Positions 34,502 to 36,189 of a stretch of DNA of 64,000 nt are shown in pieces. Origin of the DNA: Corallococcus sp. NCRR (GTDB lineage Bacteria > Myxococcota > Myxococcia > Myxococcales > Myxococcaceae). The notes below the pieces were generated by a model. It was not told the DNA's origin. It saw only the letters and a list, made by a program, of their open reading frames with translations, and searched no databases. The stretch is from the NCBI RefSeq assembly GCF_026965535.1, contig NZ_CP114039.1, positions 8,035,461 through 8,099,460 of the forward strand, written 5' to 3'. A program made the translations under genes and the position numbers. Position 1 is the stretch's first letter. Each line of letters starts with the position of its first letter.

Positions 34502-35431
34502 ATGGCCATGCGTCTCCGAACCTGCGGCGCCCTGTTGCTTCTGCTCGTCTTCTCGGCCTGCGCCACGACGGAGCCACGCCCCAGAACGTCAGCGGTCCGC
34601 GGCATCAGGGCTCCCAACCTCCAACGAGCGGCGACGCTGCCCTGGAGGGATGATGGGCGGTGTGTCGTCCGCGAAGCGTCCCAGCCCTGGCCCGTGCTGG
34701 TGGAACGGTGCTACCCAGAACTCGACCATGACCGGGTCGAGTTCCGCGACACCACGGGAAGGTGCACGGTCGCCTCCGCTGCCGCCGCGACATTGGGACT
34801 CGGGTTCTGCGTGCTGGCGGCCCCTGAAATCGCCGTGGGAGCCGTCATCGTCCTGGGCGTGGTGGTGGTTGGCGTCGCCATCAAGGAAGCACTGGATGCG
34901 TATGAGCTCCGCCACCACTACCCCGAGGAAGCGGGGACCTCACGAGGGACGAAGGTCGCGTCCCGAGATGCGGTAGGGAATGCGAAACCCAAGCTGAAAC
35001 CGGATCCAGCGGGCCAGGGCCATCAGCCCCCGGTGCCGCCTGTGTCCGTGAGCCAGACGGGCCGTGCCAGCTGCGAACCTGTTCCCGTGCCTCACGCAGG
35101 CGAGGATCGTGCGCATAACGAGTGCGCCGACAAGGTCCCGCCCAACCGGTATCCCGGGATGGATGTGCTCGTTGGCGGTGTACGCTTCGATGCGCTGCAA
35201 GTCGGTGTACGGAAACTGTGGGAGATCAAGACCCACCAGTTCGACACCTACAATGATTTTGTCCAAGCACAGGAACTCAAGAAGGAAGTGAAACAATTGA
35301 AGCATGAGCAAGACGTTGCCGAGACATGCGGCTATGGCTTCGTCGTAGGAGTGAGCACCCAAGCGCATAAAGCCGCGCTACTCGAAGAACTCCCCAAGCT
35401 TGATGTCGTCGTTACGGGGTGTAAGCGATGA
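34502..35431 (+). CDS. Lipoprotein polymorphic-toxin candidate with C-terminal PD-(D/E)xK nuclease-like domain
   Basis: Lipobox (LLLLLVFSACATT) and an internal hydrophobic segment. C-terminal motifs GMDVLVGGVRFDAL...(10 aa)...LWEIKTH give a D...ExK spacing typical of the restriction-endonuclease fold. Family assignment is inferred from the motif only. Confidence 0.5.
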   Translation: MAMRLRTCGALLLLLVFSACATTEPRPRTSAVRGIRAPNLQRAATLPWRDDGRCVVREASQPWPVLVERCYPELDHDRVEFRDTTGRCTVASAAAATLGLGFCVLAAPEIAVGAVIVLGVVVVGVAIKEALDAYELRHHYPEEAGTSRGTKVASRDAVGNAKPKLKPDPAGQGHQPPVPPVSVSQTGRASCEPVPVPHAGEDRAHNECADKVPPNRYPGMDVLVGGVRFDALQVGVRKLWEIKTHQFDTYNDFVQAQELKKEVKQLKHEQDVAETCGYGFVVGVSTQAHKAALLEELPKLDVVVTGCKR

Positions 35432-36189
35432 CCACGCGAAAAAGACTCACAGTCATCACCTATGCACCTGCGCTCTCGGGCAAGGACCGCCGCGCTCTGA
35501 GCGTTGTGCATGGAATGGAGAAAGCGTTCCCCGGCTTACGCCTGGAATGGGAGGTTGGCGAAGGTGGACACCCCATCGCATTGTCGCAGCGTGACACCTG
35601 GCTCGTGGAAAAAATTGAAGACGGTGGCTTTCCGGTCGTGTGTAACGGCGACGAGAGTTACCCCGTGACCGTCTGGGGAATGGAGAGTTCAAGACGCTCC
35701 AGCGCTGGCGGCCAAGCCCAATTCGAAGTGCACGCAAAGCTGCCACTGGACGGGCCTGTGATCGCCGCAGCGGCGGCTCTGCTTGAGGCCGTGGCGGAAG
35801 GGGCGCGTTCGTTCTGGGGCCACGCGTCGCCGTATGGATACGGCTCGGAAGTCGCCCAGCAGTTCCGCCGCTCGGCGGATGCCCCCGAGTTTTCGCCCCG
35901 TGGGCTTCCCATGCTCAACCTTCCCGAAAAGTGCCCCAGGCCGGAGACGCCCTCTTTCCTCGGGTGGCTGAACTACTGGTCCGCTGCCGCAGCGGAGGTC
36001 ATCGGGTTCCCAGACCCTGCTCGTGATGCCGAGCTGCTCTCGCGGGCGCGTCGCACGCCGTCAGGCGGCTGGCTCGTGCAGCTCACGGAGACACCGCTCG
36101 ACTACGACAATCCCGTGCACTTGAACGCGCTCAAGCAGGCCTACGAACGTTTTCCAGCCATTGGCGCACGCTCAGCGCCTTTGCCCTGA
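35428..36189 (+). CDS. Putative cognate immunity protein
   Basis: The ATG overlaps the toxin stop (ATGA). 253 aa cytoplasmic-looking protein with no signal peptide and no recognised family. The call rests on gene context only. Confidence 0.4.
   Translation: MTTRKRLTVITYAPALSGKDRRALSVVHGMEKAFPGLRLEWEVGEGGHPIALSQRDTWLVEKIEDGGFPVVCNGDESYPVTVWGMESSRRSSAGGQAQFEVHAKLPLDGPVIAAAAALLEAVAEGARSFWGHASPYGYGSEVAQQFRRSADAPEFSPRGLPMLNLPEKCPRPETPSFLGWLNYWSAAAAEVIGFPDPARDAELLSRARRTPSGGWLVQLTETPLDYDNPVHLNALKQAYERFPAIGARSAPLP

Follow-up and report, generated by a model that had tools for sequence, protein, structure and literature searches.

SitA toxins of myxobacteria are lipoproteins with an N-terminal escort domain of approximately 375 amino acids (aa) and a C-terminal nuclease; their genes are followed by sitI, delivery occurs by TraAB-mediated outer-membrane exchange and 25–80 loci are found per genome (PMC8546572). 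The toxin domains of SitA4, SitA6 and SitA7 are non-modular, and SitA3-Mf1 carries PF15648, the Tox-REase-5 family (PMC8546572). SitA6 corresponds to PF09533 and is accompanied by double-CXXCG immunity proteins (PMC12077181). Tox-REase-5 domains share the signature 'Y, FDG, EAK, Y' and have Imm52 as immunity partner (Zhang et al., PMC3482391). A solved pair of this kind is TseT-TsiT of Pseudomonas aeruginosa (PA3907-PA3908; PDB 7dym, 9oz0), which consists of a PF15648 nuclease effector and a PF15579 (Imm52) immunity protein, TseT being cytoplasmic type VI secretion system (T6SS) cargo. Here, we compare with these systems a pair of overlapping genes, A and B, from Corallococcus sp. NCRR. The pair lies in a window of 64,000 nucleotides (nt), the whole stretch of DNA analyzed (contig NZ_CP114039.1, positions 8,035,461 to 8,099,460 of the forward strand), and coordinates refer to this window unless a locus is named. 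Our best explanation as a whole, which we consider probable, is that A-B constitutes a two-gene polymorphic toxin-immunity module aimed at related myxobacteria. An initial annotation of the window had proposed a nuclease toxin with its immunity protein, and predicted folds, strict linkage of the two genes and polymorphism of the locus support that proposal; none of the outcomes it had listed as refuting was encountered. The genes and the parts of their products are as follows.

34502–35431, + strand: gene A, 309-aa lipoprotein, candidate toxin, DUF6310 family
34502–34561, + strand: type II (lipoprotein) signal peptide of A, lipobox FSAC (LVFSAC), Cys20
34562–34762, + strand: N-terminal Cys-rich domain of A, residues 21–87
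34763–34882, + strand: hydrophobic segment of A, residues 88–127 (40 residues), CTVASAAAATLGLGFCVLAAPEIAVGAVIVLGVVVVGVAI
34883–35068, + strand: linker of A, residues 128–189, low-complexity, Pro- and charge-rich, variable in sequence, disordered in the model
35069–35428, + strand: DUF6310 domain of A, residues 190–309, predicted TseT-like PD-(D/E)xK fold
35072–35125 and 35327–35329, + strand: conserved Cys/His positions, A residues 191–208 and 276
35162–35230, + strand: predicted catalytic motif, D221 (beta-1), F229-D230-A231 (beta-2), W240-E241-I-K243 (beta-3)
35428–35431, + strand: ATGA stop/start overlap of A and B, sequence AAGCGATGACCACG, CGATGA context
35428–36189, + strand: gene B, 253-aa candidate immunity protein, DUF5953, no signal peptide, cytoplasmic, TsiT/Imm52-like fold

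Both proteins belong to Pfam families. A matched DUF6310 (PF19829) with 191.5 bits (gathering cut-off 27; E 6e-57) over residues 185–307, and B matched DUF5953 (PF19378) with 377.7 bits (gathering cut-off 25; E 3e-113) over residues 19–250, which corrects the initial annotation in its statement that B had no recognizable family. Its remaining description of the pair was largely accurate. The lipobox is present and its Cys20 is invariant in 112 homologues of A (65–86% identity). The hydrophobic segment was found as well; its only charged residue is the Glu of an invariant mid-segment Pro108-Glu109, and its Kyte-Doolittle maximum over 19 residues is 2.72. B starts within the stop codon of A and is devoid of a signal peptide. 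This overlap implies translational coupling of the two genes. In the catalytic region, the blocks GMDVLVGGVRFDAL and LWEIKTH are separated by 6 residues instead of the 10 given initially, while 10 residues do separate D230 and E241.

Translation of A probably begins at ATG 34508 (M3) and not at 34502, because an RBS-like GAAGAG (34496–34501; RBS, ribosome binding site) precedes it 6 nt upstream and most homologues begin with MRxR. The public annotation, produced with the Prokaryotic Genome Annotation Pipeline (PGAP), contains a 245-aa model (protein P0004, 34694–35431, Val65 start) that cuts off the lipoprotein signal and half of the N-domain. We rejected this model, as approximately 100 homologues keep the upstream signal peptide.

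The structure of A was modeled with AlphaFold2 on the alignment of the 112 homologues. Residues 190–309 were predicted with high confidence (pLDDT, the predicted local distance difference test score, >90) and showed the order alpha (203–211), beta (220–224), beta (227–233), beta (238–243), alpha (252–275), beta (279–284), alpha, beta. The C-domain of this model is a PD-(D/E)xK core, in which strand 2 bears D230 and strand 3 bears E241-x-K243, in line with the nuclease fold proposed initially. Conservation of the presumed catalytic residues points in the same direction. D221, D230, E241 and K243 are invariant in the 112 close homologues and near-invariant in 53 distant ones, D230 of beta-2 and E241-I-K243 being present in 52–53 of these 53 very diverse DUF6310 domains. 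The positions conserved over the diverse set are C191, H198, G200, H205, A209, D210, N215, D221, F229, D230, A231, L239, W240, E241, K243, A273 and C276. Residues 251–272 and 291–300 form a variable tip within the C-domain. C191, H198, H205 and C276 (and mostly C208 and C307) are kept in all DUF6310 domains, even in extracellular contractile injection system (eCIS) and PAAR-like forms that are loaded in the cytoplasm. As conservation extends to these cytoplasmically loaded forms, a metal site is favored over disulfides, and the pattern suggests that C191, H198, H205 and C276 constitute such a site.

Comparison with solved structures linked both proteins to the same complex. The predicted folds of A and B each independently matched one chain of a single solved effector-immunity complex. 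The best structural match of B was TsiT, the Imm52 immunity protein of TseT, and the fold of A was nearest to the solved Tox-REase-5 domain; the closest solved relatives are T6SS proteins. Furthermore, A contains equivalents of the Tox-REase-5 signature (Y217, F229-D-A, E241-I-K and Y250), which are invariant in the 112 homologues and conserved in the 53 diverse domains. B combines the predicted Imm52 fold with a position directly 3' of a REase-fold toxin gene. On these structural grounds A-B is most fittingly classed with the effector-immunity pairs of the TseT/TsiT (Tox-REase-5/Imm52) kind, as a member that is borne on a lipoprotein and divergent in sequence. Several features distinguish it from TseT-TsiT. 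The proteins have no significant sequence similarity to TseT and TsiT and fall into separate Pfam families. In contrast to the T6SS cargo TseT, A begins with a lipoprotein signal, followed by a Cys-rich N-domain, a hydrophobic segment and a long linker. Unlike TseT, DUF6310 displays a conserved C-x6-H-x-G-x4-H-x2-C-A-D ahead of the core, and unlike TseT-TsiT, the A family has many paralogues per genome. The PD-(D/E)xK toxins of the CdiA-CT/CdiI type (PDB 4zqu, 4g6u, 4g6v) have the general fold and the toxin-then-immunity order in common with A-B. B very probably neutralizes A, and it is likely, almost to the same degree, that A is a toxic nuclease.

The assignment is also supported by the genetic linkage of both genes. 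A scan of one genome per species detected 192 loci, which were confined to Myxococcaceae/Archangiaceae; several species had at least five per genome, and the present Corallococcus genome has at least four A paralogues. In the 80 loci used for linkage statistics, B was always located directly 3' of A (80/80), with a 4-nt overlap in 78. Such linkage, together with TsiT as best structural match, does not agree with B being an independent housekeeping gene. Tandem arrays were found in Corallococcus terminator, with two and three A-B pairs (loci L017, 6001–9995, and L059, 6001–11799), and orphan B fragments reside upstream of complete pairs in C. exercitus (L011, 6–575) and Pyxidicoccus caerfyrddinensis (L049, 4584–4727). 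An immunity gene directly downstream of the toxin gene, accompanied by orphan immunity genes or cassettes, is characteristic of polymorphic toxin loci. Taken together, DUF6310 and DUF5953 comprise more than 2,000 clusters of proteins in the collection searched. Phages do not typically carry the family, since the 2.9 million viral contigs of IMG/VR contained a single DUF6310 lipoprotein locus (L081, 3316–4227, 63% identity). A prophage border or a mis-binned contig might account for L081.

A search of 1.84 billion representative proteins with a profile of the C-domain yielded 258 proteins, 156 of them at E≤1e-10. Among the 150 matches listed, DUF6310 is located at or near the C-terminus. N-terminal partners in the long proteins examined were eCIS_core (formerly DUF4157), transglutaminase (Transglut_core) and CBM2 (CBM_2). 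Two proteins carry the PAAR-like DUF4280, and others are short lipoproteins with a linker only. Non-myxobacterial examples came from Acidobacteriota, Flavobacteriales (Bacteroidota) and cyanobacteria. Two scans for metagenome loci with such distant, eCIS-type DUF6310 genes, aimed at DUF5953-like genes behind them, gave no confirmed hit. An N-terminal DUF4157 is known to mark eCIS toxins (PMC8213781). DUF6310 behaves as a modular C-terminal toxin tip, and a tip common to different N-terminal trafficking modules is a hallmark of polymorphic toxins (Zhang et al. 2012).

The hydrophobic segment recurs together with this tip. We counted 19-mers with a Kyte-Doolittle value of at least 1.8 within 140 residues upstream of DUF6310. 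A strongly hydrophobic 19-mer followed by a charged or Pro-rich linker was present in 39 of 52 differing architectures. An internal control in the long proteins displayed the segment in 25 of 32 proximal windows versus 2 of 83 windows farther upstream (Fisher p 8e-17). Many of these stretches are 30–60 residues long and visibly consist of two helices with a short Gly/Pro/polar turn; by analogy, the Corallococcus segment with its central Pro-Glu could be a hairpin likewise. In the AlphaFold2 model of A, one long helix was predicted at 111–139. Residues 88–127 could span the membrane as one helix or fold into a helical hairpin, and this choice is the main uncertainty concerning topology and delivery of A. 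The eCIS DUF4157 and DUF4280 toxins share the DUF6310 tip with A, usually after a hydrophobic segment and charged linker, whereas they have another delivery module, occur in other phyla and lack a lipoprotein signal.

Comparison of the locus between related species revealed strong local divergence, as would be anticipated for a polymorphic toxin. The C. interemptor locus (L001) is syntenic and comprises the vault-protein homologue, remnants of two small upstream genes, A, B, a 268-aa open reading frame (ORF) and an RdgC-like gene. Nucleotide identity to C. interemptor is 94–99% in the flanks and 61–91% in an island from 33988 to 36237, with a minimum of 65–74% over 35188–35787, which corresponds to the 3' end of A and the 5' half of B. 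In C. carmarthensis (L008), A-B adjoins the vault gene, the small upstream genes are absent and the downstream genes differ. In both species, flanks of 94–99% identity at the syntenic site contrast with 65–74% for the toxin tip and the N-terminal half of B. Nei-Gojobori estimates of nonsynonymous (dN) and synonymous (dS) divergence were 0.008–0.02 and 0.11–0.20 in the flanks, and 0.11–0.17 and 0.49–0.90 in A and B. Parts of the toxin domain and of the N-terminal half of B reached dS values up to 0.8–1.4, and the hydrophobic segment remained near flank values (dS 0.22–0.30). The toxin tip and the immunity gene diverge far faster than their surroundings, another characteristic of polymorphic toxins. 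These patterns suggest that a cassette of toxin tip and immunity gene was replaced through recombination, one breakpoint lying near the linker. In the 80 pairs, divergence of the toxin tip (residues 251–309) tracked that of the N-terminal half of B (r 0.43); the corresponding value was −0.04 for the N-domain of A, and the two halves of B correlated with each other at r 0.15. This fits a co-diversifying specificity module of toxin tip and N-terminal half of B. Moreover, DUF5953 proteins exist in two alternative types at B residues ~131–170 (35818–35937), GHASPYGYGSEVAQQFRRS versus GRATPYDAAVDIAYQTAPT, which are distributed as a mosaic relative to the rest of the protein.

The N-terminal part of A connects the pair with the SitA toxins. 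Lys at position +2 is an inner-membrane retention signal for Myxococcus lipoproteins. The +2 residue of A is Ala, as in at least 90% of the sequences, and sorting to the outer membrane is probable because the retention signal is absent. The following domain (residues 21–87) had no family match and was modeled as helical with pLDDT 75–91; it is a candidate 'escort' or periplasmic domain. The cysteines C54, C70, C88 and C103 are all invariant in the 112 homologues, C88 being situated at the boundary to the hydrophobic segment. Searches with residues 21–135 alone retrieved only short fragments of less than 200 aa, none of them with another toxin domain. Like SitA/SitI, A-B combines a lipobox cysteine and a non-retaining +2 residue with a C-terminal predicted nuclease, a candidate immunity gene that follows directly within the operon and many divergent alleles per genome. 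Its range coincides with the group possessing TraAB, as for SitA/SitI, and its toxin domain appears to be non-modular as in SitA4, SitA6 and SitA7. By analogy, A-B behaves like a SitA/SitI locus. Differences exist as well. The hydrophobic segment is unreported for SitA in the papers available, A does not contain the AHH domain reported for SitA4 and SitA6 alleles, and a Pfam scan gave no match to PF09533, so that A is not SitA6.

According to the mechanism that we propose, A would be exported by Sec through its lipoprotein signal peptide, acylated at Cys20 and, without Lys(+2), probably sorted to the outer membrane. B would be translated in the cytoplasm from the mRNA of A by translational coupling, bind the nuclease domain and thereby shield the producer and kin cells with the same allele. 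Related myxobacteria without a matching B allele would be the targets. The likeliest route would be outer-membrane exchange of lipoproteins, as for SitA; deduced from no more than the lipoprotein signal and the taxonomic distribution, it falls slightly short of being probable. After transfer, the hydrophobic segment and the flexible linker might help the nuclease domain to cross the inner membrane of the recipient, a role we regard as tentative and rather doubtful. Finally, the C-terminal 120 residues (DUF6310) would cut nucleic acid via D230/E241-x-K243, with D221 and D210. The computation establishes both predicted folds, the invariant catalytic residues, the A-B linkage, the modular DUF6310 tip and the polymorphism of the locus.

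Several observations weigh against the interpretation as an exchanged toxin-immunity pair. Every step of the mechanism is deduced from sequence and predicted folds. A relaxed Pfam scan of 33 A family members gave no match to Tox-REase-5 (PF15648) at E≤10, and the match of B to Imm52 (PF15579) was below threshold (11.6 bits, cut-off 25; E 0.2); of 120 B family members, seven reached E≤1 with a best value of 0.056. Single-sequence and profile searches of the PDB sequences retrieved nothing relevant, neither TseT nor TsiT. As sequence searches gave no significant match, it is the predicted folds that connect A and B with TseT and TsiT. The N-region of A measures approximately 185 aa as compared to the ~375-aa escort domains of SitA. 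In addition, a segment as hydrophobic as that of A would ordinarily stop transfer and anchor the protein in the inner membrane of the producer, which is hard to square with Lol sorting to the outer membrane and hence with outer-membrane exchange. Positive selection was not detected, dN/dS being below 1 in every segment (0.04–0.43), and co-variation of toxin tip and N-terminal half of B may reflect mere physical adjacency on the DNA.

The mechanism might be as proposed and yet be known already, if the DUF6310 lipoproteins were the published SitA7 and DUF5953 were SitI7. Vassallo and Wall reportedly described SitA7, in PNAS in 2019, as a TraA-dependent, serially transferred toxin. What is on record for SitA7 is compatible with the A family: a lipoprotein family with a non-modular domain called 'a predicted DNase', partial resistance when a restriction-modification-like cluster is lost, and no factor identified for entry through the envelope (PMC8546572). 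The DNase activity of TseT-type nucleases is methylation-sensitive (PMC9990079). The A family, too, appears to be non-modular and has many copies, and DUF6310/DUF5953 genes (P0092, P0095 and P0198) are present in M. fulvus HW-1, from which the tested SitA7 allele comes. However, A can be set beside SitA7 by description only. DUF6310 and DUF5953 are mentioned nowhere in the searchable literature, NCBI and UniProt give the proteins DUF names only, and NCBIfam had no match for A, B or their neighbors, whereas SitA6 has been tied in print to a Pfam/TIGRFAM family (PMC12077181). The difference in length of the escort region also speaks against identity. Altogether, we consider identity with SitA7 quite possible, but less than probable.

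The hydrophobic segment raises the question of whether the nuclease leaves the producer at all. A could be a bitopic inner-membrane protein whose nuclease resides in the cytoplasm of its own cell, held by B, and which acts upon a periplasmic or proteolytic trigger as a module for addiction, abortive infection or programmed death. The very hydrophobic stretch modeled as one long helix, the missing signal peptide of B, a conserved Cys-rich periplasmic domain that could serve as sensor and the multi-copy nature of the family, as in many toxin-antitoxin families, are all in line with this. Against it, DUF6310 is also found at the tip of injected weapons, the eCIS and PAAR-like proteins, and the defense-system models of PADLOC gave no match for A and only PDC-M17B at E 0.019 for B; for these reasons a self-directed nuclease is disfavored. 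Moreover, both partners resemble an interbacterial effector-immunity pair, the invariant Pro-Glu and the two-helix versions elsewhere fit a hairpin that would leave the toxin outside the cytoplasm, and the alleles diversify at one fixed chromosomal position much as in kin-discrimination loci. A self-acting module is thus rather improbable. Delivery of A by a contractile injection machine (T6SS or eCIS) is far less probable still. It would follow the example of TseT and of the distant homologues with DUF4280 or eCIS_core modules, and the closest solved relatives are T6SS proteins. However, the cleavable lipoprotein signal with its invariant Cys directs A to the Sec route instead of cytoplasmic loading, and the Pfam scan found no PAAR, DUF4280, DUF4157, Rhs or VgrG module in A. 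The immediate characterized neighbors (the vault homologue, the RdgC-like gene, a PBP4-type peptidase and a prolyl oligopeptidase) include no T6SS or eCIS gene. The lipoprotein signal and the unrelated neighbors render this route unlikely in this organism.

The surroundings of the pair contain further features.

33389–34102, + strand: Cys-rich lipoprotein, 237 aa, no family match, within a low-G+C variable island
34200–34431, + strand: Cys-rich secreted peptide, 77 aa, no family match, within the same low-G+C variable island
34456–34483, + strand: terminator-like hairpin, perfect 12-bp stem with 8 G-C pairs, followed by T-rich TTTCAATTTC

The initial annotation had placed A-B in one block with the Cys-rich genes at 33389–34431. 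This grouping was not borne out. Such genes accompany A-B in 2/80 and 1/80 loci, respectively, and the terminator-like hairpin stands between the small-peptide gene and the A-B unit; both facts place the upstream genes outside the unit, and they were rejected as parts of the system. Their C. interemptor copies are just 43–55% identical. The hairpin ends 19 nt ahead of A, which leaves scarcely any promoter space upstream of the gene. A sigma-70 scan found no promoter, a result that is uninformative for a myxobacterium with 67% G+C. The G+C content of the segment 33000–36200 is 0.60–0.67 versus 0.70–0.75 around it. On the upstream side, the - strand encodes a 758-aa homologue of the eukaryotic Major Vault Protein with Vault repeat domains and MVP_shoulder (30863–33139), which shows 98% protein identity in C. 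interemptor and C. carmarthensis. Downstream, the ORFs 36250–37056 and 36926–37576, both on the - strand, represent the 268-aa ORF, which has no known family, and the RdgC-like ORF; they overlap by 131 nt. The RdgC-like ORF matches the first half of the RdgC profile only (positions 22–157 of 298). This arrangement is kept in C. interemptor and may reflect two genes or an rdgC that has been split or frameshifted.

As an instance of bacterial warfare genes, A-B is ordinary. The segment recurring beside DUF6310 in lipoproteins, PAAR-like and eCIS proteins provides a handle on how envelope-delivered nucleases cross the inner membrane. Hydrophobic segment and charged linker might even constitute a portable inner-membrane-crossing device shared by the outer-membrane exchange, PAAR-like and eCIS routes, a speculation that we consider unlikely. 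If true, it would explain how a lipoprotein nuclease moves from the outer membrane of the recipient to the cytoplasm without a hijacked host protein, and it would set the A family apart from the six described SitA families. DUF6310 and DUF5953, both of unknown function, gain a concrete, testable and probable role as a TseT/TsiT-type pair left unlinked by sequence methods. For the myxobacteria, a multi-copy type of locus with a probable part in kin discrimination is added or, should A-B be SitA7, explained in structural terms.

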